DNA from: Neophaeotheca triangularis
Taxonomy: Eukaryota
Length of the DNA: 64,000 nt
Reading direction: 5' to 3'
Assembly: GCA_054600435.1 (NCBI GenBank)
Contig: BAAIJX010000010.1
Span: 496,001-560,000, forward strand
Shown: positions 7,701-41,294 of the stretch, in pieces
Position numbering within the stretch: position 1 is the stretch's first letter
Layout of the letters: each line of letters begins with the position of its first letter
Made by a program: the position numbers and the translations under genes
The notes under the pieces: model-generated
What the model was told of the DNA's origin: nothing
What the model saw: the letters and a program-made list of their open reading frames with translations, nothing else
Database searches by the model: none

Positions 7701-10700
7701 CATGCAACTATACGACCCGAATCCTAACCCTGAGCAGAGTTCTGTGCAGACCTCTCTACAAGCGTGCATTGACAGCTGCGACGAGCTCCCGGCTGGCGCT
7801 TGCGACGGCGGTGTTACCTGGATACCTCGTGGGCGTGACCAGCAGCTGTAGGTCTACATACTGAGAAAACTACCCGATAACACGTCAGAATGCTAATGTG
7901 GACGGCTAGGTGTTTTTACAAGAGATCAGCATCCTTGACCGAAATACCTTTCAGTAGCGATCAAGGCGAAATACACTCAGCGCTTCGGCTCACGGCAGCA
8001 TCATCTGACCCTCCGATATCTGATTCGCTCGATGCGACTGGGTACCAGCCACCGACGGATGGTTCACAGGTACTCGTCAATGGCGATTTCTCCAGCGGCG
8101 GACTTGAACCCTGGCAGAATACAAGACACTCGTCCTTATCTTATGCCGTTGTCAATGAACACGAGTTGTAAGTCGTATCTCCCAAAGCAGTCGTATTATT
8201 GCGCTGAACAACTATCAGGTATGTTGCGTTCAGCCTTCCGTATGGTGACTATTACGATGCAGCACCCGTTGTCCAGGAATTCGGCGTCTCCGAGAGCGAA
8301 GGGCAAACTTGGTTCTTCGCCGCCGACATCTCGGTCAATATTCCAGAAGGATCCGATATGACTTGCCATGTCATGGCATTCACAGACTATGATGCTGTTC
8401 TTGAAGGCAGAACTTACACGACGTCCGGATCTCACGTGGTATCTGGCCAAGGCTACTTCAGCGAATGCGCTTCGCGGGTGACCCTTTGGTCTGCTTGCAG
8501 AGGCAGCAGCCGCGGCACGGCAAGCCTGACGTGGGATAATGTTCGTTTGTACTTGGGTGGCACCCTGACCGAGCCAGAGCCTGCAACAACGGCCTCAGAA
8601 CCAACCTTTGTCACTCCCTCCAGCACCTCCGGATCCGACTCCGTGATCGTCTCCACGTCATCCACAGCGCCTTCAGAAGCTGAAACTGGTGCAGCTTGCC
8701 CTGTTCCCTCCGCTTGCCCTAGCCCTACGCCCAGCCCCGAGCTTCTTTGCCCAGGTGTTGATAGGACAACGTACACGCAGCCGGACGGATCTACCTGGGA
8801 GATCTACTGTGACCATCGAACAGCTACATTCCCTTATGAAATCGTCAGCCAGCTCCCAACCCTGAACGCCTGTCTAGAGAGCTGCAATCGTGTCGGCACA
8901 GCCATTTGTTCTGGCTTTGACTGGGTCCCCCCTTGGTCTCCGGGGCTTGGTCGTGGATTGTAAGTTCACTGCAAGACCTATCTTTCCTGACCTGTCCTTG
9001 AACCTAACCGCGGACAACAGCTGCATCTTCAAACCTGCTGGCATTGTCCCCTATCGTCAGGTTGGCACCCATGCAGTAGTCCGCAGGTCCGGCCCGGACT
9101 CACCCCAGCCTACCCAGACCTCTTCCAGCCAGAATTTGGCCTCAACTTGCAGCGCCCAGGTGCTTATCAACCCAGACTTCAATACAAGCTCAATCGAGCC
9201 TTGGCAGCGTGACGAGGCTTCAGGTTTCGCCCAATTTCAGTTGCAGAACAGCGCCGTGTAAGTTTCCTATTGCTGGACTTTGGAGGCAGAGTACTGGAGA
9301 AGATCAGGAGCTAATGAACAAACCAGGTCTATCAGCTATCGGGCGAATAGCGTCAATGTTGACCCTTTAATATTGCGTCAAGATTTTACTCCCGCTGCCA
9401 ATGCAGATGACTACTGGTCACTGACGGCTGCTGTAACGGTTGCGTCGTCAGGCGGCAATATCGTTTGTTTCGCCGCGATTTACACCGACTACGAGATGAT
9501 ACAAAACACCATAGTCTATCGGAGCCCGGGCAGCTATAATATCGAGGCTAGTGGCATTTTGGCTAATTGCGCAAATAGATTGACGTTGTGGGCTGCTTGT
9601 GAAGGGCCCGACGCCAGCACGTTTGCTTGGGACAGCGTCGAGCTCGCTGTGCTATCTGGCCAGATTGAGGGGCCGCTCCTGCCCGCTACGCCAAGTCCAA
9701 GTGATGTGGTGAGCTCGACTCCAACGTCGTCTTGCGTGGTCGCCGGCGCTCCTCCAGTCGGGGAGCAAGCGCTCCAGAATGGCGATTTTGTTCAAGGGTT
9801 TGATCACTGGAACATCGAGAACCAATCACCACAGTCGCAAACCGTCACTGTGGAGGATGGTCAAGCGTAAGTCTGATGAAGTCGACTTCTGTGTCCAGTC
9901 AATTCAGCTAATAGGCTTTGAAGCGTTGTGCGCATGGTCCCGAATAACGTCCAAGAGCGCAACCAAGCTCTCCTCACACAAACTCTACCCTTCCCACTCT
10001 CGGGCCGATCTTGGGAGTTTACCGCTGACATTGGCGTGACCATTTTGCCCTCATCCAGCTTGTCCGTCAGCAGCTGCAGGGTGTACATCTACGCAACCTT
10101 TTCCACCATACTGATACTCGATGTCCGAGAGACATCGAACCAATTCAGTGCTGACGAAGTGCAGAGTGGCCGTTTCCCAGAGCTCGATTCGGACGAAGAC
10201 GTACTTTCGATCCAAACCAGGTGCTCTGCCGATACCGAGGTCGTGGTGACTCTGGATAACTTGAACCTCATTGTGTACCAGCCAACGTGCCCCGATACGC
10301 CATCCTTGGCAGTACCGACGGCGACACTTACCTCCACTGACAGCGCCGCTGAGCCGGACCCTACGAGTGGCGCCGCCCCTGAGGAGCGATCGGTACAACT
10401 GCTTCGCAACAACGATTTTAGCAGCGGTATATTCGAGCCTTGGGCGCTTGGCGAACCAGTCTGGAACAGGGGTAGCTCACACGAGATTAATGAAGGGGCA
10501 TTGTAAGTATGGCTTTCCGAACGCAGCGAGCTTTTCAGGCTAATGTTACTAGGGTTGTGCGATACGACCGCCCGCAAAGCTCTTCGCGTTTCTACCAACG
10601 AGTTGACCCCAGGCTCACGAGGTTTGTGGCGGATGGACAAGAAATGTGGCTGAATATAGACATGAGCATAGAGCCTTTGACTGCAGAGTCCGGGGAGCCA

Positions 10701-11956
10701 TCATGCTATGTGGAAGCTGCAATGATATCGGACCAAAATGCGTACGGCCATGGATTCGTCGAACAATTCGAGTTTGATGATGCAGTCTCTCTCCGCTTGA
10801 CAAAACCGCTCCACCGACGAACAGAACGCTTTCAAGTGAACACACACTGCTATACCGCAGCGACGATCCGGTATGACAATATTTACTTGTCAGTTCCGCC
10901 TATACCGCGACAAAGGGTTGTCCAGGTCATTAGAAACTCAGAATTCAGCGATGGCACATTCGCACCATGGCGGCTTACGGGTTTCGGACATCAAGCCAGT
11001 GCCAACAATGGTAGACTGTAAGCCCATTTTCTGCGCTGGCTCATGCCTGGTGGGCCTAGAACTAACCTGCATGCAGTGAGTTTCAACTACTCAGCGGCGA
11101 AATGATCCTCGAACAAGTCGACCCCGTTCCATATGCTCGGCCAGGCGCGGTCGGAAATCTACGGTTTGACCTGCGATTCGATTTTGACAACAGCAGAGGA
11201 GAGTCGTGTCAAGTCGGAGCGAGCAATGCCCGGTTGCAGGAGATCTTCCTCCGCCGGGTAGACGCATCTGAGCTCGTTGAGGTGCAAGAAGCTTTCCTCT
11301 ACAATGACCCTGGTTCTACCATCAGAATTACCATCAGTTGCACCGGAGTGGCGAGTGGTTGGATCGATAACATCTTTCTCGACGTCGAGGCCGGGGATTA
11401 CGAGACTGAGGAGGAGGCCACAACTGAGGTGGATGACGGGAGGACCCAGTTGGTGCAGAACAGTGCTTTTAGGAGCAATGTTCTTGACCCATGGACCCTT
11501 TCGACCGTCCAATCAGCTTCTCACCAGGTCCAAAATGAAGCGCTGTAAGTCGCCTCGCTCACTTGCCGTGCATACATATTCTAACTTGACCGCAGCGTCA
11601 CGATCCACAACGGGGGCGAAAACGAAAAAAGCTCGGTCACTGCTTCAACGTCTTTCGACGAGTCCCTTACGGAAGCCGGACAACCCTGGATCTTGTCAGC
11701 CGATGTTAGCTTCTACGTGGCGACCTTGCGCGGCTCATGCAGTGTTCAGATCCGCGATTCATCTGGCAGCGTGCAATACGTTTTCGAGACTCTACAAACA
11801 CAGGCTTTCGCAATCTTGGAAAGAGGTGTACTTCGAGCGCCAACGTCAACGCTCTCTCTCACTGCCACCTGCAGTGGCGGCTCGAGCGTCACCTGGGACA
11901 ACATACTCTTTTCCGTGCCCCGGATCGCCGGACAGGAACTGGGAATGATCGAATGA
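4705..11956 (+). CDS. Giant secreted mucin-like modular protein A (about 6 PAN/Apple-like and about 6 CBM4/9-like modules; about 2250 aa; 10 exons); first intron acceptor is abnormal
   Basis: Signal-peptide exon 4705-4771 (MRLFGLLGCALTLLRYGKA). Donors at 4772, 7848, 8168, 8960, 9258, 9867, 10503, 11018 and 11545; splicing joins the track ORFs in frame. Repeated CP..G..Y....G..(W/F)EI.C..C...C and L.N.DF..G...PW...DN motifs. Confidence 0.8.
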
Positions 11957-13117
11957 ACGTCGATAAGCCTTCGTTTTGGTAGAGTCGGGAATTCTCAGTG
12001 AAAGGAACACTTTTCGACTTCCCTTGCCTGCGGGAGCGGTCGGTCTATTCTGCAATCAAGTAAAAAGGGGCTGACCCGGAAGCGTTGTTGTGTTAGGTGT
12101 TTCGTCCTTGGTTTTGAAAAAGGCATTTTCACGGCATATGGGTCCACTATGTGTACGTGAGTAGGTAGTTTCAAAGTCGCTTCGATGACGGGAGTCAACC
12201 TTACGACCTCGGTGTTGTAATATGCAGCGGCACGAACTCGATTAATTAATTACTAAGGACTAAACTAGGTACTTGCAGCAAAGCCTGTAAAGACAGGTTG
12301 CAGCTTCTGCCTTAGGCATGCGCTGTCACGTACTGTGCAGTACAGCTCAATACAACACTCGGGACCGTCTCAGAGAGGTCTTGGCAGTGCTGAACACAAG
12401 GCAGGTGAACCGAGCCGGGTTCTACCCGAAGCACTGCCGTCTTCTTGGCTGTCCGTCCTCCAGCAACCTCATCCCTCCCTTTCCTCCGCTCTTCATTTGA
12501 TCCTATGCCCAATGGCATCTTGTATCTCATCTTACAACTTCAAGGTGGTTCAACGTAAGACATGCACGATGAAAGGACGTCACCATTTAGTCGTACAACT
12601 TCTCGAAGCTAGTGATCCCGGGTTTATTAACCTTGTCACATCGAGCAGGCGGTCAACAATCTACTCTAGGTCGGATACTCTTGCAGAAGGCGATTTACAG
12701 ATTTCGGTGGCTGAGCATGCTATTCAATGAAACGTGGCCAAGTTTCGGTTCTTTTCTCCCTGGCACGCGGGTCACCAGCATAATGGATCGACCGGCTGTC
12801 TCTGGAATGCTACATCTCTCAGCATCGCCTGCGTTACAGCGGACCAGGCAGCCTTGGCCCGCGGTCCATGGGAGAATCAAGAAATGCCGTTGGGCGATTT
12901 AACGGCATTGCTGAGGAGGCTCCGTCTCTTAAGCCTCAAACTTAGAACTTGGCTCATTCCATTTGAGGCTCTACTCGCCACTTACGAGTTCGCGTCTCTG
13001 ACGCGCTGTCAACGCGATGCGCTCGGCGCGAGATCTTGGATGGTACATTTTTCTACATTCGTTTTCCCATCATGCTAATCCGCTTCATTCGTGGCATCGT
13101 GCTACTCAGCGGGGAAA

Positions 13118-16100
13118 ATGCGTGTTCCCGGAATAGGAGTACTACTATGTACTCTGTCCTTCTTCGGAAGGAGCACATCCAACTCGACAACCGGTGCGAA
13201 AGTCTGACTGGAGACCAAGTTGTTCGAATGCTAATCAAGCGGAATCACAGAATCAGTGGTGCAGGTAGTCACCATATCTGCTTTCCCGGAATACTGCTTC
13301 ACGACGAACAGTACCCGGCTCCCTACATCCCGCCGTAGCGATGCGCCGCTACCCACATCAACCCCTGTACCAAGTGCCTCAGAATGGCAAACGGCGCAGA
13401 ACAGCACTGATCCTTCAACGGCTGGCACTGCCACGAGCAACTTTTCTCAACGGACAAGTACTGCGTTCACTGACACGATGCGAAGTACTTTCTCTCCCTC
13501 TCCCGCTACGTCAGGCTTTGCCGAGTCGGAGCCACAACCGCCAGGTAGCGTTGACGCTACTTTCCTCACCAGCATCCCGACATCCACTACAGCTCTAGCA
13601 GCCGGTGAGCCTTCGACCGTGAGAAGCAGCTCTATCAGTTCTGAGACCACGCTTTCGCCTACTTTCGCTGAGAGCGCAGAGTCGAGCGTATCTACCACAT
13701 CACTCTTTAGCAGCGAAGAGTTGATACCGGGAACCAGTGGTGCCGTTAGTCCGCCTTCTCGAACTTCACTTCTGATTACTTCTGTCGAGAGCGCAGCATC
13801 GATTGTATCCACTACAACCTTGGCAACTAGCGAGCTATCTCTTACGGAAAGCAGTGCGATCATCAGCTCGCCCTCCCGGACTTCAGCTCTGCCCACCTCG
13901 TATGATGAGGGCACACTCGGTGTCGAGACGAGCACGTTCGTCACCGCTGGTCCCCCAGGCTCGGATACAACCTTAACAGATACGATCGCTTTTGAAAGCC
14001 CCACGACAGCCCCAAGCATCACGTCGTCTCTTCCAGCTCCAACCACATCAGCTCCACCTAGCTATAATTGCCCGGTTGTCGATGGACAACTCGTCCAAGA
14101 TCAGTTCGGGAACCAGCTACTGATCAACTGCAATGCAATTGCGGTGGAGATCGATGTTGAGCTCAACTCTGACTTCGGCCTCAAGAGACGTGCAGTAGAG
14201 AGCTACTACGCCGCATTTCCAATCAATGAAACATGGAACGACTGTTTCGCGATCTGCGAAACCAATCCGCCTCCAGCAGGCGTATGCACTTCCTTCACTT
14301 TTGCCGACTCCGCAGGGAGCAACGACATGGGTACGTGCTACCTGCACGATGGGAGGAGCCAGAGTTTTCAGGAGAGTGGTACTACGGACACACGTGTCGC
14401 GGCTATCAAGCCTGCATTTCTGGCTGAAGAGGATCCGTCAGATACCCCGGTTATCACCTCTGACACTATTCAACCCACTGAATCTGTCACCAGCCTCACT
14501 TCCGACACGAGCAGAGATACCAGCACATCTTTGACCTCCACCCAGTCAGTACCCAGCGAGAGTAGTGTGGGTACTAGCTCTACTGCAATGGGCATTGAGC
14601 AGTCTCCAACTTCGGACCAGGAAGGGTTGAGCAGCATAACCAGCGGAGAAACTTCTTCGCTTGTGGAGACTTCTACATTCCCAACAACGTCGACTTTGAG
14701 CGCTGAGATCACGTCGTCACCGATTGGACCGCCGCCAGGCCCCTCAACATCGACATTTCCCTCGACTAGACCAACGGGCACGTCTAGCAGGCCTGCAACA
14801 GCCTCTCCGACACCACTGGTCCCTGATTTTTCCTGCCCAGATGTCGATGGCCAAGTAGTCCAAGCCTACGGTGATGCTTTTGTGGTCAGTTGCAGCGCAG
14901 ATGCATTTGCCACCGACTACGCAATTGTCAACGCCGCCAATTCCTGGAATGACTGTTTTGGCCTTTGCTATTCAAATCCGCCGAGTACCCTTGTATCGTG
15001 TACTTCCTTCACATATGTTGGTGCTGAACAAGGCGAAGGAAGCGGTCAGTGCTTTCTGGGCAATGAATTGAACCTCAGCTTTCAACCAAGAGAACGAAAC
15101 GACTATCTGGCAGCCATCAAACTGGAAAACTACGGCGGTCCTCCGATAACTAGTCTCTCTAGCAGCATCGCGACGAGTTTGCCAGTATCGAGCCCCTCTT
15201 CCGTTACCGAGATCGGTCAAACAGCTCCCAGTAGCCAGACTGAGCTCGGTCAGACGTCGTCTTCTTTGATTGAGACATCTCTTTCGACGACGAGCAGCCT
15301 TACGGGCTCGACGCCGTCGGTTTCGACTGCTGAGACTGCTTTGAGTACTTCGCAAGTAGTGACCACCTCTTTGCTAACTACCACAGGCCTTTCTTCCGTT
15401 CTTGAGCCTATCGAGACACTTACTGGCGGCGAGACAGATATCAGTGATACATCCATATCGAGTGATACAGTTGAGCTGACTTCTAGTAGTTTCTCGAGTA
15501 CTGAATCTGCGACCTCGGGCGCTGCGAGTTCCGCTACGGAAGCGACAACTTCTACGTCGACTGCAGTCCTTACTACCGCTTCCTCCGTCGAGTCCATCAC
15601 AACTTCAAGTGTTACTAGTCTAGAGATCGGTGAAAGCACGATTAGTCTTGAGACGAGCGAAGCTGTTTCCACCAGCAGCTTTCTCACATCTGAGTCCATT
15701 ACCCTGACAACCGCAACCAACCCCACGACTGCGACAACCCCTACTACTGCGACGACTCCTACGACTGCAGCAACTCCTACTGCCCTCACAACTGCTACTA
15801 CTGCAACAACCCTCAGTGCAGAAACAGCTACATCTTCTACGGCGGTCACGATCGAGGAATCCATCTCTACCAGTACCGAACTAAGTGGGGAAACTAGCGA
15901 GGCTTCTACTAGCACTTTTGTCGACGAGTCAACCTCTTCAAAAGTCTCTTCAACCTCTGAGCTCCTTACCACAACGGATGCAACGTCCATCGAAACTACA
16001 CAAGCCGATACCACACAAGCCAGCACATCATCTCTTCTGTCTACAACTACGTCAACTCGCGATTCTGAAGATCTGTCGCCCAGCCCAGAAACACTGGCTC

Positions 16101-19100
16101 CTACAACATCGACAGGCACGAGCCTCACAGACACATTCACTGCTTCAGAAGCCATCGAAACCCTCACCAGCAGCGAGCCAAGCGAAATTACAACTACCAG
16201 CGTCCCAACAACTTCAGAATTAAGCTTGACGTCAAGCGACGAAACTTTGCCCTTGAGCACAGAAACAAGCTTGGAAACTACCGCGACCTTCACGAGCAGC
16301 GATGCAGAGGAATTCATCACTACGAGCACTCTGCCGATCTTCACGACCAGCGACATAGAAGAATCAGTCACTACGAGCACCCCGTCGACCTTTGATACCT
16401 CACTGCCTTCGATCACGGATACATCTGCTGTCTCGACCGAGGTCGAGGAGTCGCCAACATTAACCCTAGAGACGTCCACCTTGATTACGACGGCCGATTC
16501 TGCTGAGAGCTCTCCTTTGAGCACCGAGACCGATCTCGAGCCCAGCGGTATCTTGACGAGCACCGAAGGTAGCGATACCACCGTGACCGTGAGTGTCTCA
16601 CCGTCTTCAGGGGAATTCACGACAGCAAGTAGTGAAGCCTTGGTCTCTCCTGATGTCACAATCATCTCAACGACAACAGGGTCGAGCTCGCTCCCTGGTC
16701 TTGAACCGGGTGAGACCGTTGAAAGCCTGTCGCCTACAGCGACTGGCTGCGCCGCTCGAACGCCGGTACCAGAATTCCAATGCCCGGGTGCTCACGGCAC
16801 AGTTCATACGCAGCCCGATGGATCGGTTTGGGATATCTATTGCGATCATAATATCGGTCCAGCTCCGATCGCCAACAGAATCAGCAGCCGCCAGCTTACA
16901 CTCAATGATTGCATAGACGAATGCAATCGCGCCGGCATTGAGATCTGCGGAGGCTTAACTTATCTGAATGGAATGTAAGTCAGAACAGCCGAGGACAACA
17001 AAAAACTTTCAAAGACTGATACGTGACGATAGCTGCTTTTCGAAGCCTCTCGGAGCGCCACCTACTCTAAGACCAGTAGCTGGTGTGGGTTTCGCAGTAA
17101 CCAGAAGACGGGGCACAGGGTCCTCATCCATCGTTGTTCCGTCAAACCTGGACACGCCTTTGGTGCAGGGTACTCAGATGATCGTCAACCCGAGCTTTGA
17201 GAACGGAACTCTTGCCCCTTGGCAAACCAGAGAGGATCCCTTCGGGTATCGTTATCGAGTTGCAAACGACGAGGTGTAAGGCACACGTATCGAGAATCCG
17301 TTTCATAAGCTAATTACTCCTTCAGCATCATAACATGGCCTACTCTATATACTTCCAGTTTTGGGGTTTTCGTACTTAGCCAAGACCTTGTATCTGAAGC
17401 CACCGCAAGCCATGTATGGGCTCTCTCGGCCAGCTTCTCGATAGCCTCTGAGAGCGAAGATACCGTCTGTAACGTCATTCTCCATACCGACCGCGAAACA
17501 CTTCTTGGACCTCTGAGTTATAGCGCGCCTGGAAGCTACATTCTCGATTATCGAGGTACGCTAGGCTGCAATGCAAGACGGCTGACGGTTTGGACCGTTT
17601 GTACAGGTTCAAGCCCGTCGATTACCTTCTCGTGGGAAAGCATCTATTTCACCCTTTACCCACCGGCTCTTGACATGTCCACAACGAGTATGCTCGCAAC
17701 TGCAACCACTTTGTCGAGTAATATCTCTGAGACTATGACGACGCCAAGCGAGCCAACTCCGAGTACGCCTTCAGCCATAACACTGTCCACCGCCGGCACA
17801 GGCCCGACACTTTCTCTAACCTCCGCTGGTCTTACGAGTACTACTGCGACAGCCAGTGAGTTGCCAGTACCTCCAGCCTGCATCACTGCGACGCCACAGC
17901 CCGAACTCTTCTGTCCAAGCGCTAATGGGACGCACGTTCAACCCGACGGCTCGGTCTGGGATATTTATTGCGACCAACAGACACAGTCATATCATCCGGA
18001 GATTTTGAGTCGCCAAGCTACACTGAACGACTGCATTGAGAGCTGTAACCGAGCCGGCGCAGAAGTTTGCGGAGGACTTACATACGCTTCCAGAATGTAG
18101 GTCAATGCCTGGTCGCGTAGGTTCTCTCAAAGCTGACACTCTACTTAAGCTGCTATCTCAAACCTATAGGGGTAACTGCCTTCCCACGACCAGATGGCTC
18201 ACGCGGCCTAGCGGTCATAAGAAGAACAGGTCCGAGTTTGTCTCCCGCCCATATCCCCTTGCAGGAAATACCCTCAATTGGAGGCGTTCAAGTGATCTCG
18301 AATCCGACTTTTAGCAATGATACAATCTCACCATGGGAGCTCACACGGCCTGATTGGGCCAGCTATCAGCTGATTGACAGTCGAGCGTGAGTACGCACCG
18401 TGCAAAGTGGTCTGGATGCGCTGACATGTCCGCCAGGGAAACGTCGTGGGCCGCGAATGCAACACACGTCGGGATTTTCTCGCTCGATCAAGATCTTGGC
18501 ACCAGTAGTAGCGAGGGTCAGTTATGGGTGCTGTCTGCTGACATTATCGTTGAATTGACCGGCAACAACGACACTTGCCTCGTTGCCGTCCACACGGAAA
18601 ATGAGACCCTCCAGGCGACTTTGAGCTTCACTGTCTCTGGATCCTACACCTTGGAAGCTAGCGGCTCCTTATGCCACAGCTTCAACCGTATCTCGCTATG
18701 GGCCGTATGTCAGGGATCCGGACCCGGGCTTGGAGCCGGCACCATGACTTTCGCTTGGGACACTGTCGAGTTCACGCTTTACCCGGATCCTGGTGCTTCT
18801 TCGACGACGACATTGGTGCCTACCTCCGGTTCAGGCGCTCCAACTTCTATGATTCCAACGTCTACTACCTCAACGTGGGAAGCGTCAATCCCAACCAGCT
18901 CTGTTTCATCCGGCTGTTTCCCTAGTCCGACGCCACAAGTCGAGCTAGTCTGCCCAGATGCCAATGGTACATCCCTCACGTTGCCTGACGGCTCAGTTTG
19001 GGATGTTTATTGCGATTACGTATCGTCCACGCTCAACCCTGAGTTCAACATCGTGTATGATACTCTTAATGAATGCATTAGCAGTTGTAATGTCGCCGGT

Positions 19101-23904: not shown

Positions 23905-24592
23905 AAGACAGTCTTGTTGCTAGCAGCCGCAGAAAGGTATACTAGAGCGCAGTATTCGGTACATCGCTGCGAGATGACTCGCACTCGAAGCGCTATAACG
24001 GAGGGCTTTCCGACGAGATCAGCTGTGCCTGGGGCTGAGTTGAGCCAAAACGTTTCCCGGGCATTCACGACCAGATGGCTCGCGGCAGAGATTTCGCCAA
24101 CGGCGACAGCTTGGGAGCTTCAGCGAGGATAAGTGCATTTTGCCGGCATGCGCGTGCCAAGGGGTAGCATGGAGACGATGTATATATGAAGATTCGCCAT
24201 CTGACCAGCATTTGAAAAGGGCGGAGGAGAGCAGACGTGGGGATTCTCATGGGTATCTCTAGTATCTTTTTTGAGCGCAATTTGAAATATAGACTGTACA
24301 TTCGCAGCATTGTTCGAGAAAGCATACCTATATTGATGCTCTGTCAATCGCTTCACCCTTGCCTCATTTCCTCGTACGTGTCGTTGCAAGACGGGCCGAA
24401 TGTGTTCGTACAAGCGAGCGCAGTATACGGCATAATGTTACTCTGGGGAACCTCGGACGCCGCGGATCTAATTGCGACCCAAAGCTTTTCATAGTCAATG
24501 GTGACGCCAGAAACCGGGTCGTGGGTCATTGTGACCGCATCTTACTGGCGAGATATGTGTTGTAGTATTACGCGTGGCCTATACTCTGGCAA

Positions 24593-25696
24593 TCAAGTAA
24601 TGGTAAGCTCCCGCGCCTCGCCGAATCCATTGTAGCAAACGCCACGCAAATTCCACTGCGACTTCCTGGGTTGCGTATTACCCGCAGCATCAGTTGCCCT
24701 ACTGAGCAGAATCTGATGCTTGCCGACTGACATCTGCACCTTCGCCTGCCAAAGCTTCCAAGACCACTTGCCCTCGTCGGGATAGCTGAGGAGATCGGCT
24801 TCGATCCATTGCTCGCCGTTGGTAGAGACCTCGACTTTCACCACCGGGCCATCATCACCGCTGGGGAGAGCGTAGCCTTTGGCGGTCACACATCCTTCCG
24901 CGTCGCGCTGCACAGTGCTGCCGCCTTCCGGCACGGCAATGACCGAGTTGACAGGCATCTCCTGGATAGGAGGCGTGGTGCCCCAGTAAGGCTTCGCAGC
25001 TTCGGCATCTACAGCCTCCGGGGGCAGGACTTTGTAGTCCCGCTGTTGGTAGTGATTGCTGCTCTCCTCAGTCTGCACAGTAATACGGTCGAGCCACTTG
25101 ACCGCTCTCGCACCCGCGATGCCTGGTGTCACGATCCTGACTGGAAAACCGTGGCCGATAGGCAAGTCTTCATCGTTCATCTTCGTGGCGACGAGCACAT
25201 CGGCATCATCCCTCAGAGCTCGTTGAAGGTCGATGCTGGCGCCATACCAAGTGTCGCCCTGGCATTCTGTAGCGTAGCAGGAAAAGGCGGCATGGGCGGT
25301 CTTCTGCTCCTCCGCGCTCAAAGCTACCCCAGCCTTCTCCAAGACATCCTTTAGCTTCACACCAGTCCATTTGCAGTTCATGACAGCTCCATCGAACCAG
25401 TCAACACCCTGGACCTCCTGAATCAACGTCCTCATAGTGTGGCGTCGATTGCCGGCGCATTGCAAGGCGCAGACTACGGTGTGTTGCGGGAAATCTCGCT
25501 CCAAATCGGCTTTCGTAAGCTGGAGCTCCTTCGTTACAGCGCCATCGATACGGACTCGATGCTTCTCGCCGTCGAGCTTTGGGTGCGGGCAGTGGTTCCT
25601 GTCGTATGCCAAGCCTTCTTTCTGGGTGATGAACGAAGATATCAGGTCACCAATGTCGGGCTCCCTGTTTAGGGGCTTTTCTGATAGTTCCGGCAT
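24593..25696 (-). CDS. Sulfite oxidase family molybdopterin oxidoreductase (Moco-binding plus dimerisation domains, no cytochrome b5 domain)
   Basis: PLNREP, YDRNH, LQCAGNRR (Mo-ligand Cys), HGFPVR..PG..GARAVKWL, WSWKLW and WNLRG motifs. Confidence 0.92.
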   Translation of the reverse strand: MPELSEKPLNREPDIGDLISSFITQKEGLAYDRNHCPHPKLDGEKHRVRIDGAVTKELQLTKADLERDFPQHTVVCALQCAGNRRHTMRTLIQEVQGVDWFDGAVMNCKWTGVKLKDVLEKAGVALSAEEQKTAHAAFSCYATECQGDTWYGASIDLQRALRDDADVLVATKMNDEDLPIGHGFPVRIVTPGIAGARAVKWLDRITVQTEESSNHYQQRDYKVLPPEAVDAEAAKPYWGTTPPIQEMPVNSVIAVPEGGSTVQRDAEGCVTAKGYALPSGDDGPVVKVEVSTNGEQWIEADLLSYPDEGKWSWKLWQAKVQMSVGKHQILLSRATDAAGNTQPRKSQWNLRGVCYNGFGEARELTIT

Positions 25697-26395
25697 CCGT
25701 GATTTGCGTAGTCGAGCTCATATCCGTGTGGGAGTAAGGTATGGTCAACGGAGAGCTCTCCCGTGTTGGTCGAGGTTGCCTTTGTGATGTCAGCTCCATA
25801 TTGGGCTTAGCTCGCATTCCTATTTGAACCTCATGCCAAGACACTGTCCATCGAGATGCCGTTGACAGCGAACAGAACGGGGCAATCTACGACCTCGACG
25901 ACATGATATGATATGATGAGTTGAAACATAAAAGGGCGGTAAATTGATCTCGAGACTCACCGTGTATTTAGGCTAGTTCGCCGACAAATCCCGCGAGGTT
26001 CTTCGAAAACACCATCTTTGTCCGCAGCTCTCGCGGTCTTGAAGGCTTCTCATTGGCCGTGCCATTACCGTCGGATACCTGTCCTCTACGTACCCACCAA
26101 CATTACCCGACTGAGCATCCCTACTGTCTTCTACCGCTTCATACAGGCTCAGGCGAGCTCATGTTTAGACCGACGGTGCCTGCATGTATGCAGTAGCTCC
26201 CGATTAGTTGCGCTCCACCTCACCCCGCCTGTTTAACCCCATGCCAAGGAGCAGTCTACTATATAACTGGCCTCCCGCCGCAGTTTCCCTTCATGTTGTA
26301 AGTAAACTCTTTGCTGGGCCTCTCACTTTGACCACCTCCTTCTTGTTTCAAACGCATTTGCTTCAGATAATCTAGAGGCTCCATCGTAAGGCAAG

Positions 26396-28784
26396 ATGAA
26401 GTTCAAAGACGGTATGCTTAGCCTTCACTCCACTTTAACCTTTACATATGCTCATGGATATCCTCAGGCATGTGGCTGCCAGTGGAGGGCAAGAGGGTCG
26501 AGTACGCAGAGGATATCTACTCTATTGATCAGAGCGAAGACGGCAAGAAGCTGAAGCTACTGTGCCCGACGATGAAGATAAAATCCAGAGGAGACACCCT
26601 CAACAGGCCGACAATCACAGTGGTACGTTTTGTTTTGTAGAAAGGGTCAAATGGCGCTTTTTTGACATCTATCAGGAGCTCGAAGCAGTGGCAGACGGTG
26701 TCATATCCATCGAGACCACTCACTGGCACGGTGCTTTGAAGAGAGGACCAGAGTTCGAGAAGTTCCCTCACGGCAGTCCCTCGGTCAACGCCTCTATCAA
26801 GAAATCAGAGGCCGGTACTACGCTCAATTCCGGCAGCCTAGGAGCTACAGTGACATCTCAGCCAAACACCTTCGATATCCGCTTTCACGGTGCGGATGGC
26901 AAGCAGACACTGACATCCCTACTGGATCGGAGCGTTGCCCTTGCTTATTCGCCGGCGACTAGTACACCAATGCAGACAGCTGACATGAGAGACATTCAAC
27001 ATTACATGCTCACCCAAACGACCCTCGGCGTGGGCGAGCAGGTGTACGGTCTCGGCGAACGCTTTGGCGGCTTCAACAAGATTGGCCAGAGCGTTTCTCT
27101 TTGGAATGCGGACGGTGGTACTTCAAGTGACCAAGCTTACAAGAATGTCTCGTTCTGGCTGAGCAACAAGGGGTATGGTGTGTTCATCGATGCCCCGGAA
27201 AAGGTCGATCTCGAAGTAGGCAGCGAGCGATGCTGTAGAGTGCAGACAAGTGTCGAGGGCCAGAGATTGAAGCAATACATCATTTACGGTCCTTCACCAA
27301 AAGAGATCATCAGCCGATATACCGACCTGACAGGAAAACCTGGAAAGGTGCCCGCATGGAGTTATGGCCTTTGGCTAAGCACTTCGTTCACGACCAACTA
27401 CGACGAGAAAACGGTCAACAGCTTCCTCGAGGGGATGAGAGACCGAGACATCCCGCTCCAAGTCTTCCACTATGACTGCTTCTGGATGCGAGGCTTCCAC
27501 TGGTGTGATTTCGAGTTCATGTCTTCGCACTTTCCCGACCCCAAGGGCCAGATCACCCGTATGAAGGAAAACGGGCTTGCCTCCAAAGTCTGCGTCTGGA
27601 TCAACTCCTACCTCGGGCAAGCTTCGCCCGTATTCCAAGAAGCTGCCGACAAAGGTTACCTCCTCCGCCGCAAGAATGGCGATGTCTGGCAGTGGGATCT
27701 CTGGCAAGCGGGCATGGGCATTGTCGACTTCACCAATCCCGAAGCCTGCAAATGGTTCAAGTCCTGCCTCAACAAGCTCTTCGACACCGGTATCGACTCG
27801 ATCAAGACCGACTTCGGCGAGCGCATCCCCAGCCGAGATGTTCAATGGCACGACAGGTCCGTCGATCCCGCCAAGATGCACAACTACTATGCCTTCCTCT
27901 TCAACCAAGTCGTCTACGAAGCGCTGCAAGAACGCTACGGCGACGATCAAGCCGTCCTCTTTGCCCGCGCAGCTTGCGCCGGAACGCAACGCTTCCCACT
28001 CCAATGGGGCGGCGACTGCGAATCGACTTTCGAAGCCATGGCTGAATCTCTCCGCGGCGGTCTCTCCCTCGGTCTCTGCGGCTTCTCCTTCTGGTCCGTC
28101 GACATCGGCGGTTTCGAAGGCTACCCCGACGCCACAATCTACAAGCGCTGGGTACAATTCGGCCTATTGTGCTCGCACTCCCGTCTCCACGGCAGCAACT
28201 CCTACCGCGTCCCCTGGCTCATCGACGACGACGACAAGAGCGAGCAAGGCTGCAGCGCGGTGTTGCGGAAGATGACGCAGCTCAAATGCCGTTTGATGCC
28301 GTATCTGTACAGCGAGTCCATGGAAGCCATCAAGCACGGCTGGCCGGTAAGCGTACGTGCCATGGCGCTCGAGTTCCCTGAAGACAAGACTGCCTGGTTG
28401 TGCGACCAGCAATTCATGCTTGGGTCGTCGATACTCGTCGCGCCCATTTTCACCGAAGAAGGCGGCGTCGAGTTCTATCTCCCGGCTGGCAAGTGGACTT
28501 CGCTGTGGGATAGCTCCAAGACCGTTTCTGGTCCGGGATGGGTCAAGGAGACGCACGCGCTCGATAGTCTGCCCATTTACGTTCGTGAGGGCAGTATTTT
28601 GGTCATGGGCAAGGAAGGCGAGAAGAGGACGCATTATGACTGGACGAAGCCGGAGGGTCATGAGATCAAGTTGTACGAGCCCAACGCTGATAGTAAGGCG
28701 GAGTTGTATGATGCTGAGGGCAAGCATGTGAGCACGCTCTCTGTTAAGGAGGAGCAAGGTGGTTGGAAAGTTCAAGGGCTGTAG
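26396..28784 (+). CDS. GH31 alpha-xylosidase (YicI-like), two short 5' introns
   Basis: MKFKDG|MWL start; YGLGERF, GGTSSDQAYKN, WLSTSFTT, KTDFGERIP (nucleophile), WGGDC and SHSRLHG motifs. Confidence 0.93.
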
Positions 28785-29122
28785 GATGGCTTCATATAGA
28801 GTTCTACGCACTCACGCCGGGCAGAGCTTACCAATCACTTCACGCACAGGGCAGTATAGACTTACTTTATCAGAGGAATGCTCAAGAGGCAAGTAGGGAC
28901 TCATACAACAGTCACCCAACGAGGCAATGCTCCCTGCTCGAGATTCCGTAGGGTGGTCTTGGGCTTTAGCTGGCTCAGCCTTGTGTAGACAATCTTGCTT
29001 CGAGGCTTCGAGATTATGATCATTTGTCGGGTCGAAGAATACAGCTGAGACAAGTTCATTGAGTCATCATTGCCAGGCGCAATCCTTCGTCGTCGATCAT
29101 GGACTGCTATAGAAGGTTTTCT

Positions 29123-30400
29123 TTACAGCCTGCTCTTTCGGGGTATCTCGAGCATCGATAGTCCTCCGTCTTTCACCTCATAATGTCTGCCTTTCTGCCA
29201 GCCCAACCACATCCCTAGCGTCTCCTCGCCTTCCTCGCCAGGCCTTAAGCCTTTGCTGATCCAGCCTTCACCCTGAATCCCAATACCCTGTCCTTGCGCC
29301 GGCGGCCGGCCCTCTGCATCACCATCCGCGATTCCCCACCCGGGCGTCCTCGAAAGCGTAACAATCGGTCGTTGATCAAACCCAGCCTTCTCAAGCTCAT
29401 GCTGCTCGAAGACAGGAGTACAACAAGCATCCGTCCCATCGAAGACCTTCTCCCACTCATCTCTTGTCTTGCTCTTGAACGTCTTTGTGAACAACTCCCT
29501 AAGGGCTGGCCAAGTCTTCTTATCCTCCCTGGGCTTCGGCGCACTCTCAGGATCAATCCCCAACCCCTTCAGCAACTGCGCATAAAACTGCGGCTCCAAC
29601 GCTCCCACAGCCATGAAGCGTCCATCCTTCGTCTCGTACGTATCGTAATACGGACTACCCCCGTCCAGCATGTTCTCCCCCCGAGGCGCATTCCACATGG
29701 GTCCCTTACTCGCCAGCCGCGGCATACTAGCCATCATCGCACTCCCATCAACCATATTCGCCTCGACAACCTGACCCAACCCGGTTCTCTCGCGCTGAAA
29801 CAAGGCCAACAAGATCCCCAAAACACAAACCGCCCCTCCGCCAGCGAAATCCCCAATCAAATTCCCCGGCGCATAAGGCCTCTCGCCCTTCCTCCCCAGC
29901 ATCGACAACACCCCGCTCACGGCAATGTAATTGATATCATGCCCCGCCATATCCTTGTACTTGCCATCGCGCCTGAAGCCCGTCATGCGCGCGACGATCA
30001 ATGCGGGGTTCATGCGCAGCAGCAGGCCTTCGGGAGACAGGCCCATTTTCTCCAGCACGCCTGGGCGGAAGGGATCGATTACAATGTCGACTTTTGGGAT
30101 CAGGGTTTTGATCAGCTCGACGCCGCCTGGGGACTTCATGTCGACGGCTATGCTTGTTTTGCGGCGGGTTAATTGATCGGGAGTTGGTGGGGGGGGATTG
30201 TCGGAGTGAGCGGAGGGGTGGGCGCGGTCGACGCGGAGGACGGTGGCGCCGTAGTCGGCGAGGAGCATGCCTGTGAAAGGGCCTGTGAGGGCGGTGTTAG
30301 CCAAGGACTTGCGAATGGGAGGGTTATGGTCGTGTCTCGTACCCGGTGCCAGGCCGGCAAACTCCAGCACCCGAATGCCTTGAAGAGGTGGTCCGCTCAT
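29123..30400 (-). CDS. CoA-transferase family III / alpha-methylacyl-CoA racemase-like, C-terminal PTS1 (SRL)
   Basis: [17 protein letters not shown] (after removing a 60-nt in-frame intron), [23 protein letters not shown] and GALEPQFY motifs; ends KSRL*. Confidence 0.92.
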
Positions 30401-30942
30401 GGTTGTAGTGTCTTTTCTTTTCGATCTGGCAATCAATGCCAGCTATGCGCGAGAAGACTACATATTTGATGTACGGCTGCCGTTCGGGTTGGGAGCTCTC
30501 GAGATGAGGAGCTGTGCCTTGTTATCCTCGGTAGTAGACCGTCCTCGCTTATTTTGCTCTTTTGGGACTAGCGCCATCTAGATGAAGTTCCTCTGATGAA
30601 CTGCCCGTGCCGTGCAGTCCAGGTGTTGCGGTTTCTCCCCTTACTGTATCACTACCTCAGCTGCCGCCAGTGATGAAGTACGATTGACCAAAAAGATTGA
30701 ACGTGTTTCTACGTAGCTAAATTACAACAAGCCCACTCGAATGATCGCTTTCCGTCCTAAATCACGAATGAAGTACTCGCATCCCACGGCTTTCGACAAG
30801 ATGTCTGATGCCGGCTCGCGTGATCGAAGTAGCTCATGCCAAAAAGTGCTGCAAAAATTGCTACCCATTGAATCAAATTAAGATCTCTTGATGACCCTGC
30901 CGCTCGGAATCCCCACAGCTCCCATCTCCCCCTGCCTCCGCG

Positions 30943-33900
30943 CTAGCCAATTGACGGGCCGGACACTCTCATGGCGATGTTACTCAAGGCGAATCTGCAT
31001 GGGGCGCCCTCGCAATTGACGTAGAAAACCACGTCGAACCTATTTGCGCCTTGAATCGGTACAGTCAATCGCCGCACGTCGGATGACCCTGCGACGTCTG
31101 ATTCCCAGACAGTGACGGAGTCGAAGACGGGAAGAAGGCGTGCAGCGAGGTAGAGATAAGTGCCTTGAACGAACTGGAAGTCGAAGTCCAAAAACACTGT
31201 CTGACCAGCTCGCGCGAAGGGTAAATCGCCGCTGTTTTGTCTGAATTCAAAATCGCTGCCCTGCGGCACAGAGAACGTGCTGTGGAGTGTTAGCTGCGCT
31301 CATAGATCTACCTATTTGAGAGGTAAAGGGATGATCTTGTAAACTACTTACATTCGGTTCCCGGAAATCGCTCTAGTCACACCGGCGTTATTGAAATCGT
31401 TCACCACCCATGGACTGATCGAGCCGCCCTGGAAAGCCGGGTTCAAGAGCACTGCATTCTGGGGAGGCACTTCGGGCTCAATATCATCATCGGATTGAAA
31501 GCTTAGACGAATATTGCTCAAGGTGAATTGACACGACTGTCCTGGGACAGAGTCGCAGTAGACGTAGAATTGCAAGACCGAAGGATTGCCTGTGATCGGG
31601 AAGCGCCTACGTGTGGTAGTAAGGGCTGCTGGGGGGTTGGCTTGGTTTATGAGAAGGTTGTCACTTCCTAGTTGAACATCAAAGTTCAAGTATTGGGAGT
31701 TTCGGTGTTCGAAGTCGAACTCCAGAACGACGGTCTGGCCGTCTAATGCCAATGGGCCGCCGCTGCTAGTTTGAGAGAAGTCGATTGCACCATTACCTTG
31801 GAAGGCGAACGTTCTAGTCTCGTGTTAGATCATTCTTCTCCGTTTGGAGCGAGATCAGCATGAAACGGTACTCACATTCGACTATTAGCGGCTAACCTGG
31901 TGAAACCGGTTGGACCCGTCTCTACCCATGGTGCAATAGAGCCACCGGCGAAATTTGTGTTCAAAAGTCCTTGAACAGTCGGCCCTTCGGGCTCCTCGGG
32001 CGGGCCAGGCTCCGGAGCATCGTCGGAGTCTACAGCTAAGCGAATGTTGCTTATAGTGAACTGGCATTGTCCATTCGTGGCGGAATCACAGTACACGTAG
32101 AAAGAGAAACTCCTTGGGTTGCCGGCGACGGTAATCGTCTGGCTGATCGACGTGGTCGTAGCGGCTGTCGATGCCGGTATCTCTCTGTCCAATAAGAAGT
32201 AGTTTCTAGGAGTGTCCTCAAGATAAGCTAGGATGTTGATGTACCGAGAGTTGGGTGATACGAAGTCGAATGCCAGTGCTGCACTTTGGCCATCCCTCGC
32301 GAATGGGAGACCGCCGGTGCCGACTTGCTGCAGTTCTACACCGCCACTGCCTGGGAAGGAGAACGTTCTAACCTTCGTTAGCCACTTTCGCAATCACCCG
32401 CTGGTAAACGAACTTTACGACCTAGGGAATACTAACATTCGGCCACCAGAGGCTGTTACTGACAAGCCAGGGGGAGGGCTGCCCGCTATCACCCATGGCG
32501 CGTAAGATCCACCCTCGAAACCCGTGTTGACGAGTTGAGCCAGCGACGTATCAGGAGTGTCGGGCACTTCGGGTTCCTCGGGTTCCTCGGGCTCCTCTGG
32601 GTCAGGAACTTGCGGTTCATCAGGCACTTCGGGTTCTTCTGGTTCCTCAGGCTCTTCTGGTTCAGGCACTTCGGGCACTTCGGGCTCTTCTGGTTCTTCT
32701 GGTTCAGGCACTTCGGGTTCTTCTGGTTCCTCGGGCTCTTCAGGCTCTTCAGGCACTTCGGGCACTTCGGGCACTTCGGGCTGTTCGGGCTCTTCTGGTT
32801 CTTCTGGTTCAGGCACTTCGGGCTCCTCTGGTGTCTCAGGTTCCTCTGGTTCAGGCACTTCGGGCTCCTCTGGTGTCTCAGGTTCCTCTGGTTCAGGCTC
32901 TTCGGGTACCTCAGGCTCTTCAGGTTCAGGAACTGAGGGTTCTTCGGGTTCCTCTGGCTCCTCTGGATCAGGAACTGGCGAGACCGGTTCATCAGGTTCC
33001 CCGGCGTCACTGGACTCAACGCCCAAGCGAATGTTGCTCAGACTGAGCAGACAGGGCTCGCCCGCGCGAGGGACGCAGTAGACATAGATCGAGAAAACCG
33101 ATGCATCAGATGTGAGCACCCTAGTCTCGCGCACAGCGATAGTAGACGCCCCTGGGCCATCGACTGCTGCAAGGCGGTTGGCGGCAAGGTTAGCGTTGAG
33201 GTAGATGAAGCTGCTTTGGTGTCCCATGTCCATTTCCAGTACTACTCTCTGGCCAGCTAGTGCAAAGGGCCCGGTGCTGCTGATTTGCAAAAGCTCAAAC
33301 TCGACTTCCTGCGGGATGGTGAACGTGCTGGCTTAATGTTAGCAGTCATCCTCGGCTCTTCACCTTGACCACTCTTCGAGTCTACTCACATTCGCCCATC
33401 GGATGCTGATGCGGGTACACTGGCTCCGCCTACGGGTACGATTTGCCATGGGAGAATTGAGCCGCCTTCGAATTCAGTGTTCACGAGAACCTGATCAAGG
33501 TTCGACCAATCCGGTTCGGAATCGCCAGGCACCTCGGGCACCTCGGGTACCTCGGGTGGTGGGATCTCAGGTGCCGGAGGCAGCACATCCGGTAGGCTGA
33601 GGACAAGATAGACATCGTCAATATCGATGGTCGCGACGGTGACAGAGGGTCCAACGGTACAGAAGACCTCGATGGTGAATCTGGATGCATCGGACTGCAG
33701 AACTCCCGCGGCTTCGACAGTGGTATCTGTGACTTGTGCGCGAGGGTAGGCGACTTCTGTTCCGACCCAGATGGCGAATTCGCAGTTACTGCCCTCGGTC
33801 TCGCCTTCCCAGGTGGTTTGGATGTCAACGCTGGCACTGTAAGATTGGCCCGCTTGGACACTGATGTCCTGGTAGATCTGGCCGCTGGTGAAGGTGGAAG

Positions 33901-36856
33901 TGTCGTAGGGCCCGCCGGATAGGAGATCAATGTTGCTGTAACGATGCGTGAGCGACTACCACGAATGAAGCAAGATTACAGTTCAACTTACAGAGTGCCC
34001 TCATTCACGGACACGGCCGGCCCGGCTACCGTGTCGTCCGACTGGCGCTTGGCGAGCAAGAGAGGCGTAGGCCCAGTCTGAAGCTCGACCTGCCACGGTT
34101 CCACGGTGCAGTTGTCGAAGTGGCCGTTTTGGAGCACTTGTCCGGAAAGCTGGGGTTGTCCGGTAACCGGTCCGCTACGAGCATAGGTGAATAGAGATGC
34201 CTCCACGATCGTCACGTCGATGTTCTCCTCACCGGTGCACCACACCAAGAGTTGGGTGCCACTTGCTGACTGTTGTAGTATTCCAGCCGCTTGGTAATCT
34301 CCAGTGCCCAAGCCGTAGATCTCGCTGATCAAGATTTGTCCGCCATCTGTGCGTACTTGGAAGAAGCACTGAGCGTCTCCGGTTGGGACGCTTAGCTGCA
34401 CGTTAATGAAATAGTTGCCAGTTCCTGTCGGGCTCAACAAACTCTGTTGGAAACCTGCTGCGGTATCCGGGTTGAAACCTCCGTTGTAGCTCCCAGCTTG
34501 ACCCTGAGAAAGGTCCAGGCTCAAAGTTCTGTAGTTGATGTTAGCATGAAGCATTAAGTAGGTGTTTGAAACATCGATGCTTGCTTACAGTCCTAATAGG
34601 CTCAGGTTGATCGAGAGCCCTTCAGGCTGTGCAGTTATAAGAGCCAGGTCGCCGAGGCCGGGATCCTCCACGACCTGTGAGCTACGCCTACCGCCATCAG
34701 GACCAGTGATGCGGAGAGCACTTTGTTTACCCTCGGGAGCATTTTCAATGACATCGGCTGCGCTCGCCAGCAGAATGCATAGAGGGACCTCCGATCTAAG
34801 CTCTAGGGTGCTGGACACGCAATTGGTTCCGTAGGTCAGGCAAGCTTCAATGCATGCGGATAGCGTGCTGATCTCAACCTCTTCGAGGACATCCAGGGCG
34901 TCGTATCCGAACCTCCTGCCGCACTGTATCAGGAACAGTGACCCATCAAGGCCATGGTAAATTTCGCCGTTGCCGTCGGGGCATTGCGGGGGTCCATCCG
35001 TAGGGACACGAGAAGCAGAGTGTATAACTTGATCAGTAGGCGCGGCTATCGGGAAGGCACGGCGGCTCGCAGACCTGAGGAAGCATGACGATTCCTCGTC
35101 ATCGCCGGACTCGACCCATGAGACGCCAACGCAGCTGGTAGGACCCGCGGCGTCGCATTGCTCAATGCAATCAGCAAGGCTAGCTTGCGTCGTCACAGTC
35201 TCATCATCCGTGCTCCAGAGGTCAGTAGAGCACATTACACGGTAGCTGGCGCCTTCGGACGAGCTGTAAATCTGCTGATCGTCGAAGGGGCACACCACGC
35301 GCGGTGTTGGGTTAGGTGTGCAAGCTTCGCTTGCGCTAGACACGGTCGAGGTCAAGCTGCTGGAAGACAAGGCAGTGGTGGCAGCGGTGGTAGTAAGGCT
35401 TGTTGATGAGCTTTGGACAGTCGAACTGGTCGGAAGTGCGAATGTTGTGGAGCTAGACAGAAGCGACGTGGTTGTCGGCTGGCTTGCGGTGGTACCGGTC
35501 AAGGTGCTAGATGATGCAGTGCTCAACACGCTCTCTGTTGAGCTTTCGCCGCTCGAGGTAGCGGATGCGGAGCTGGTCTCGCTCGTAACATCACTGCCAA
35601 AGCTTGAAGTGACGCTTTCTGAGAACGAGACCACAAACGATTCGCTGGTAGAGACACCATCGAAACTCGAGGTAGTGCTGATGGTTGTGATCGGCGAAGT
35701 CACTGCAGACGTGGTAGTTGTCGTAGACAACGCTGGAGTGGACACATCATCGGTCAACGAAGTTATCGGCGACGTCGCTGCAGACGTGGTAGCTGTCGTA
35801 GACAACACTGGAGTGGACACATCATCAGTCGAAGAAGACATCGAGGTACCCGGTGCGTCGCCAGTGGGAGTCTGCACGGGGGAGCCGTCTCGGGTGGAGC
35901 TCGTCAATCCGGGTAAGCCGGTTGGCGGCACATCACCCGACGTCGCAACGTCGGTCTCTTCGGCAGGGCTCTCGACAAAGAATTCGGTCAGAATGGCCGC
36001 AATACGCACTTCGCCGGAGTCATTGTCTGCAAAAGTCAGACTTTCTCCATCCTTGAGAAGGCAAGTGCCAGCGCCGTTGCCGATGCCATTGCTGTCGTCC
36101 GAGCTGGCGTATACGAAGGAGGTGCAGCGTCCGATGGACGATGGATTGTTCTGGCAGACTTCAAAACATTGGTTCCAGGATGAGTCTACTTCGTAGCTTG
36201 CGTAGTAGAAGTTTTCGACTTGACGAGCTCTGACCTTGCGGTAACTGGTAGAAATGGTACCCACAGCATCGCCATCGCAATTGACGGTGTAGGTGTTTCC
36301 GAACTGGTCTCGCACGGTCTCTCCGTCAACCACAGGACACGAGTAGTCGGGCGTTGCTCCAAACGTAGGGATAGGCAGATTGGTGTCATAAACAGGCGGA
36401 GATTGGGCCGAGCTAGGCACAGGCACAGTTGTTGAAGGCGAGGTGGTGGCGCTGCCGAGTTCAGTCGTTGGCAGGATTGGAGTAGTAAAAGAGCTTGGAT
36501 CATCGTACGGTGGGATCGGCGTGGTAGAAGTCGTGCTCACACCAGGGACAGGTGGGCTTTGCCCCGTACCGGTTGGCAAGCCACCCGTTACGGAGGGAAG
36601 GCCGCTCAAGTCGCTGCTTGCGATGCTCGGAGAGCTCGAGCCTGGTGGTAGCGCATCGCTTTGATCTGACGTGGGGATGCGAGAGGTGAACGTTGTAGTA
36701 CAGTACGAGGGATATTCCGCTATGGTGATCACGTTGACGCCTATCTGTAGTCAGTAATGCAACATGAAGCGCTACGACACTGATTTGGTTCGTACCTTGG
36801 CCTTTGCTGAAACGCAGCAGAGCTAGCACGTATGGCAGTGCCCGAAGAGACCACAT
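30943..36856 (-). CDS. Giant secreted mucin-like modular protein C (3 PAN/Apple-like, about 6 CBM4/9-like modules, acidic Pro/Glu repeat; about 1800 aa; 8 exons)
   Basis: Signal-peptide exon 36856-36796 (MWSLRALPYVLALLRFSKG) and intron 36741-36795. Further donors at 34588, 33991, 33389, 32437, 31875 and 31351. Shares the VITI..YP.YC N-terminal motif and first Cys domain with genes A and B. Confidence 0.85.
32560..33000 (-). repeat. Coding low-complexity repeat (EPEEPEVP)n within gene C
   Basis: Degenerate 9-bp-based tandem repeats; about 145 aa made almost only of P, E, V, D and T. Confidence 0.9.
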
Positions 36857-41177: not shown

Positions 41178-41294
41178 GACGGGCGAGCTGCTCTCTCAGG
41201 TCTGTCTGGTATCTGTCTTTTCCTCTCTTCCTTCAACAACAACGACAACCACGTTTGGGTGTCTGTCGCGCTCGTGAGAGCTAGGGGCTCAGGC

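Follow-up and report, generated by a model that had tools for sequence, protein, structure and literature searches.

Why should every internal intron of three related fungal genes lie in the same phase and inside a protein module? The question is raised by a window of 64,000 nucleotides (nt) from Neophaeotheca triangularis (assembly GCA_054600435.1, contig BAAIJX010000010.1, positions 496,001 to 560,000), a fungal stretch of DNA that carries three paralogous genes, called here A, B and C, each of which was rebuilt from its coordinates as one open frame. Coordinates below are those of the window. The first-pass annotation of this DNA had proposed exon shuffling, Dscam-like combinatorial splicing, intron-mediated recombination and a ladder of isoforms made by intron retention, and had named tandem duplication of an intron-bearing unit as a simpler explanation. 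It is this last reading that the evidence supports: with a probability of about 0.85, the 26 internal introns represent two old sites inherited through tandem module duplication, an ordinary outcome of repeat expansion.

The three genes are the following.

4705 to 11956, + strand: gene A, 10 exons, 2245 amino acids; signal peptide, Ser/Thr-rich stalks, six PAN-type and six carbohydrate-binding-module-like (CBM-like) modules
13118 to 23904, + strand: gene B, 14 exons, 3355 amino acids; signal peptide, long Ser/Thr stalk, eight PAN-type and seven CBM-like modules
30943 to 36856, - strand: gene C, 8 exons, 1825 amino acids; signal peptide, stalk, three PAN-type and six CBM-like modules, Pro/Glu spacer

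All three display the same order, namely a signal-peptide-like exon, a phase-1 intron, a long exon that encodes Ser/Thr-rich stalks and PAN-type modules, and then arrays of PAN-type modules and CBM-like modules of about 150 residues, the two types mostly alternating in gene B. When all exons are joined, the frames stay intact and the modules are complete. The public N. triangularis model P0063 (GAB7360728.1) is identical to gene A at 1732 of 1732 aligned residues and uses 14 of its 16 internal splice sites; it begins at residue 123 of A and is therefore without the signal peptide. A fourth paralogue of the same species, P0004 (GAB7366676.1), shows 45% identity over 333 amino acids to the first two PAN modules of A; its module order is different from that of A and its gene model stops at the CBM intron site.

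The internal introns (8 in A, 12 in B and 6 in C) are phase 2 in 26 of 26 cases, which confirms in the rebuilt genes the count and the phase given by the first-pass annotation. They are GT-AG introns of 50 to 72 nt with consensus donors and acceptors and a branch-like motif 7 to 21 nt before the AG, flanked by exons of 234 to 996 nt. The first introns, located behind the signal peptide, are phase 1 in all three genes. In the list, PAN site and CBM site denote the type of module that is interrupted.

4772 to 4825, + strand: gene A, first intron, phase 1; donor and branch motif present, acceptor ends TTG, not YAG
7848 to 7909, + strand: gene A, PAN site, phase 2
8168 to 8218, + strand: gene A, CBM site, phase 2
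8960 to 9020, + strand: gene A, PAN site, phase 2
9258 to 9326, + strand: gene A, CBM site, phase 2
9867 to 9923, + strand: gene A, CBM site, phase 2
10503 to 10552, + strand: gene A, CBM site, phase 2
11018 to 11076, + strand: gene A, CBM site, phase 2
11545 to 11595, + strand: gene A, CBM site, phase 2
13194 to 13250, + strand: gene B, first intron, phase 1
16975 to 17032, + strand: gene B, PAN site, phase 2
17276 to 17325, + strand: gene B, CBM site, phase 2
18097 to 18149, + strand: gene B, PAN site, phase 2
18387 to 18436, + strand: gene B, CBM site, phase 2
19142 to 19195, + strand: gene B, PAN site, phase 2; GTATGC donor, stop on retention at codon 5
19430 to 19479, + strand: gene B, CBM site, phase 2; GTACGT donor, stop on retention at codon 11
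20056 to 20109, + strand: gene B, CBM site, phase 2
20863 to 20921, + strand: gene B, PAN site, phase 2
21055 to 21510, + strand: gene B, fifth CBM-like module, intronless; empty site at about 21163-21165
21918 to 21983, + strand: gene B, PAN site, phase 2
22218 to 22271, + strand: gene B, CBM site, phase 2
23157 to 23206, + strand: gene B, PAN site, phase 2
23462 to 23525, + strand: gene B, CBM site, phase 2
36741 to 36795, - strand: gene C, first intron, phase 1
34529 to 34588, - strand: gene C, CBM site, phase 2; degenerate module
33936 to 33991, - strand: gene C, CBM site, phase 2
33328 to 33389, - strand: gene C, CBM site, phase 2
32368 to 32436, - strand: gene C, fifth intron, CBM site, phase 2; GTTAGT donor at the homologous column
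31814 to 31875, - strand: gene C, CBM site, phase 2
31280 to 31351, - strand: gene C, CBM site, phase 2

Reading frame and homology with B and C both demand the TTG acceptor in the first intron of A, the next AG downstream being out of frame; the TTG could be a splice mutation, a rare acceptor or an assembly error. In the fifth intron of C a second in-frame phase-2 donor is found at 32418, 18 nt off, and of the two the homologous GTTAGT looks the weaker.

In the module alignments the 26 introns fall into two columns, as the first-pass annotation had described them: before the last Cys of the PAN module and after the first strands of the CBM-like module. Indeed, 18 introns share one CBM-like column (18 of 19 modules, profile column 36-37), where strand 36-42 of the predicted sandwich begins, and the other eight precede the last Cys of a PAN-type module by one codon (8 of 17 modules, none of them in gene C). 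The first CBM-like module of C has a degenerate N-terminal part and was placed by its C-terminal side. One CBM-like module and nine PAN-type modules are without an intron. The introns were also said to cut inside domains, and this holds for all 26, none being found in a linker. The same column and the same phase in homologous modules is what a tandem domain repeat with an inherited intron requires.

According to this reading, one phase-2 intron would have been present in an ancestral CBM-like module and another in one lineage of the PAN module. The modules would then have multiplied in tandem long ago, mostly as whole modules or as PAN and CBM pairs with the intron inside, each copy would have inherited the intron position and phase, and one CBM-like copy would later have lost its intron exactly. 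Pairwise identity between copies ranges from 9 to 46% for CBM-like and from 15 to 57% for PAN-type modules, and four-fold sites differ at 0.67 (CBM-like, 55 pairs) and 0.66 (PAN-type, 30 pairs), near saturation; judged by their sequences, the modules of A, B and C are old. Introns of one gene share nothing beyond chance, with a mean longest match of 4.34 compared to 4.36 in shuffles (109 pairs). The intronless module of B nests among intron-bearing B modules with moderate support (85/85; wider group 92/91), and its empty site is likely a precise intron loss within the repeat array.

Relatives were collected by a profile search, which gave 56 proteins, while three word-index protein searches gave no match at E <= 0.001. 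The sole locus of a metagenome DNA scan, L001, was rejected as an unrelated bacterial-looking match. Counts for the relatives refer to the 20 ORF-called (open reading frame, ORF) records with source Logan, ENA or JGI, after setting aside three own-species records, five gene models, two unrelated low-complexity proteins and 26 records without source look-up; P0025 and P0054 are NCBI gene models, not ORF calls. In these 20 ORF calls, 40 CBM modules read through the intron site, 36 of them with at most five extra residues, and five of the 20 ORFs terminate at this site or immediately after it. On its 54-kb contig, P0002 holds seven uninterrupted CBM modules flanked by two interrupted ones. Intron sites in the relatives are read at the protein level from ORF ends, and some records could derive from transcripts; at that level the CBM-site intron is dispensable, judging by the relatives.

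The uniformity of phase has to be read in the light of this homology. Counted as independent, 26 phase-2 introns would have a probability of 0.25^26, or about 2e-16, a figure that is unwarranted because the 26 introns are copies of two sites. Counted as two homologous sites, both are phase 2 with a probability of 0.04-0.11 if the phase-2 share is assumed to be 0.2-0.33. Seven introns of neighbouring genes, a small control hand-picked from 69 candidates for joining long frames, are phase 0, 1 and 2 in two, two and three cases. In Neurospora an excess of phase-0 introns has been described (PMC4317165). The claim that skips between introns of the same type keep the frame is true, though an automatic consequence: both this property and the 2-2 symmetry of the 23 internal exons beyond exon 2 follow because the modules are homologous.

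The in-frame stops have a comparable explanation. A stop is found in all 26 introns, at the first full intronic codon in 23 of them and within 11 codons in the other three, and the first-pass remark that most donors put a stop at or near the junction is accurate. These stops arise because the G of a phase-2 donor completes a codon and the next one becomes TAA, TGA or TAG from GTAA, GTGA or GTAG donors. Drosophila phase-2 GT(A/G)A donors likewise force TAA or TGA as the first full intronic codon and, when retained, expose the mRNA to nonsense-mediated decay (PMC2809761); the three GTAG donors that give TAG are further ones found here. One reading of the stops is that intron retention is regulated and provides the cell with a functional series of shorter secreted proteins. 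Among alternative events in fungi retention is the most frequent (PMC3925392), and no C-terminal anchor is evident by eye (no obvious glycosylphosphatidylinositol tail in gene A), so truncated forms would still be secreted. However, the stops follow from phase and donor consensus, with GTAA or GTGA donors also present in 6 of the 7 neighbouring introns, and each truncated form would end in an incomplete module, a PAN that lacks its last Cys or a sandwich fragment of about 36 residues. Moreover, premature stops on retention make substrates for nonsense-mediated decay (PMC2809761). The stops themselves thus stand as a known mechanical property of phase-2 introns while their use for designed isoforms does not: a retained intron most likely gives a premature stop and a decay substrate, and a functional ladder is very improbable, the least likely of the readings that we weighed.

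Several observations weigh against duplication with one mRNA per gene. In the PAN tree, which is weak, the intron label is clustered (9-10 of 500 shuffles as low) yet changes three times, and this poorly resolved tree neither shows nor excludes a single intron origin. The CBM-site intron is kept in 18 of 19 copies here and mostly absent in relatives, for which descent is the only explanation that we can offer. The others are a positive correlation between module halves that share an exon, with a co-evolution effect that could raise the figure on the opposite side, an exon skip in P0063 and a slight pairing excess between neighbouring introns; they lend themselves to the two alternatives that follow. 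According to strict exon shuffling, the arrays grew and still change by recombination in introns, and the mobile unit is the exon, made of the C-half of one module and the N-half of the next. The symmetry of all 23 internal exons is in line with it, as is the module order, which varies between A, B, C and P0004, and with the exon taken as the unit a positive correlation is obtained (rho 0.34, p 0.02). Across the intron, however, an N-half tracks its own C-half better (rho 0.69 vs 0.34 on its own exon), as measured at the 10 junctions where one CBM-like module directly follows another, and this favours the module with the intron inside as the duplication unit. Co-evolution of the halves within one fold can also raise the module-as-unit rho, but would itself argue against interchangeable halves. 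The introns show no similarity to each other, the best repeats at the DNA level are found within exons (two PAN starts match at 89% over 79 nt), and the partial extra last strand in B (~22850-22900) is bounded within an exon. In addition, some arrays in relatives are intronless, as are nine PAN modules here. Classical exon shuffling is recognised by same-phase introns that flank a domain at its borders, a position occupied by none of the 26. Exon borders have elsewhere been found enriched in linkers (PMC1553488). Four exons of A are matched without gaps, at 97-100% identity and with the same donor ends, by seven ORF records from other assemblies, a small hint at a gene structure that may be stable among isolates, exon order not being readable from these records. 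Shuffling with the exon as unit is thus unlikely, and the lack of intron similarity, the near-saturated synonymous sites and the correlation of the halves speak against the proposed recombination in introns as a present-day process.

The other alternative concerns splicing. Under duplication with constitutive splicing, the introns would be excised one by one through short-intron definition, very probably giving one main full-length mRNA per gene; intron definition is expected because short introns sit among long exons, and its failure leads to retention, not skipping. Indeed, in 23 fungi retention makes up 61% and exon skipping 3% of alternative events, which was explained by intron definition (PMC3925392). 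Under regulated cassette skipping, Dscam-like in its effect, donors would join downstream acceptors of the same type to give variable arrays and chimeric modules. All skips preserve the frame, and jumps of the same type amount to 16 of 28 in A, 30 of 66 in B and 15 of 15 in C. Among fungi, Tuber melanosporum offers a precedent for receptors diversified by splicing (PMC10197012). Furthermore, P0063 joins the first PAN-site donor of A to the first CBM-site acceptor, omitting exon 7910-8167 in frame. This skip of exon 3 is cross-type and breaks two modules, and it looks like a prediction artefact; P0063 also lacks about 900 nt within exon 2, again in frame, and has the late start mentioned above, and the accessible part of PMC13064199 held nothing on how the model was predicted. 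In Dscam-type arrays, docking and selector sequences in introns pair at the RNA level. Here intron similarity and pairing were assessed by several measures with dinucleotide shuffles and context folds, and a signal was obtained in duplex energy only: neighbouring introns show a slight excess (mean z -0.67 for 23 pairs vs -0.18 and +0.05; permutation p 0.013-0.016 within genes and 0.0015 overall, one of many post hoc tests), the cofold interaction is borderline (p 0.07 and 0.03), and uninterrupted-helix measures give no pairing signal (p 0.19-0.55). The strongest pair, 9258-9326 with 9867-9923 in A (+ strand), forms an imperfect duplex of -36 kcal/mol (z -3.6) around a 540-nt exon. In wider windows, however, it falls from 26 to 0.1-0.5 expected base pairs, a pair of introns from different genes reaches -34.6 kcal/mol, and null windows, 1 of 33 of which reached 25 base pairs, have a mean of 3.2 vs 2.9 for the 23 real pairs. 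The excess vanishes in wider context; pairing was rejected as a mechanism and is kept as an unexplained observation. Moreover, just 11 of 23 single-exon skips are of the same type (2 of 11 in B), the protein is intact when every exon is included, and relatives carry arrays mostly without these introns. The CBM site lies within the sandwich and modules are 9-46% identical, so chimeras would mix poorly matched halves. Several tests went against combinatorial splicing, leaving the P0063 skip and the post hoc pairing excess as weak leads, and regulated skipping appears very improbable. We see an equally slim chance that intra-domain introns were recruited, with help from intron pairing, as a combinatorial switch at the level of splicing, giving secreted lectin-like proteins of variable length with chimeric sandwiches. 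The regions where every internal exon consists of a CBM C-half and the next N-half are gene C and the latter half of A, and it is to these above all that such a switch, at the same low odds, would apply. If real, skipping would make these genes an uncommon fungal example of combinatorial surface diversity, reached by a mode otherwise rare in fungi.

The identity of the modules was examined with profiles and structure prediction. Exon 2 of A and exon 2 of C score above the Pfam PAN cut-off (PF00024, PF14295), and exon 2 of B under it (19.7 vs 27 bits); intron-split PAN-type modules were assigned by their aligned six-Cys pattern, not by a profile match of their own. CBM_4_9 (PF02018) matches 4 of 23 window pieces, all under the cut-off (maximum 16.5 vs 25.9 bits), gives no match for the whole intronless CBM-like module of B, and passes its cut-off in 4 of 13 homologous proteins scanned. 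That B module is predicted as a beta-sandwich (predicted local distance difference test, pLDDT, 87), and Foldseek relates it to CBM4, CBM16, CBM29 and CBM61-type PDB structures (E ~1e-5, template modelling score ~0.5), in agreement with its language-model neighbours. The modules thus resemble CBM_4_9 or galactose-binding-like modules in their predicted jelly-roll fold but differ in scores under the PF02018 cut-off and in two conserved Cys. The three genes encode large, mucin-like secreted proteins assembled from PAN-type modules and CBM-like beta-sandwiches, and the predicted fold suggests that these proteins most likely bind cell wall or matrix polysaccharide.

Dibasic motifs (KSR, KRR, RARQ, KRQ), which resemble Kex2 cleavage sites, are present at ~5900-5930 and 14170-14200 (+ strand) and at ~36215-36245 and 34035-34050 (- strand), in loops within modules of both the PAN and the CBM-like type, and the relatives P0021, P0034 and P0045 have comparable motifs; judging by these motifs, the proteins may be cleaved after secretion. 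Between two CBM-like modules of C lies a Pro/Glu/Val spacer of about 150 residues built on a 9-nt-based repeat (32542-32978, - strand). In B, within 22699-22900 (+ strand), a 30-nt Thr-rich tandem repeat is followed by the extra partial last CBM strand, which starts and ends within one exon. The final module of B is without its last strand, and a decayed look-alike, a weak one (E 0.43), lies at 24002-24061, 100 nt behind the stop. Such extra and decayed strands may be read as signs of array turnover with breakpoints inside exons. As for the neighbourhood, the region between B and C (24596-30442) presumably holds, by eye, sulfite-oxidase-like, GH31 alpha-xylosidase-like and CoA-transferase-like genes, and the one beyond C (38200-43830) dynamin-like and V-ATPase subunit A-like genes.

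Among known systems, nebulin comes close as far as its description goes, with an exon pattern that recurs per repeat block, borders inside domains and duplication points not assignable to introns (PMC1553488); A, B and C differ in being fungal and in having two module types, very short introns and old, diverged copies. Dscam1 shares tandem homologous exons in an extracellular multi-domain protein, but its arrays are described as mutually exclusive with one variant per transcript (PMC1397879), whereas in the present genes a single frame accommodates all exons, and two exon types take turns along most of B; judged from gene anatomy, the exons of A, B and C do not form a mutually exclusive array. 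Ss-Sl2 of Sclerotinia sclerotiorum, compared by description, has two PAN modules, and the available text mentions no CBM-like array (PMC3338822). In a literature search that covered subscription journals thinly, no paper was found on A, B or C or on Dscam-like arrays in fungal secreted proteins.

These genes provide a clean fungal example of domain duplication that carries intron position and phase along, with one exact loss. For gene finders and genome scans they also hold a caution, namely that a uniform intron phase in repeat genes does not count as independent evidence. The more interesting by-product is the giant secreted PAN and CBM-like protein family itself: the seven family records that carry a name among 30 looked up (Neophaeotheca, Oleoguttula, Zasmidium and Cercospora) are all hypothetical or uncharacterised, and in records and searches the family is apparently uncharacterised.

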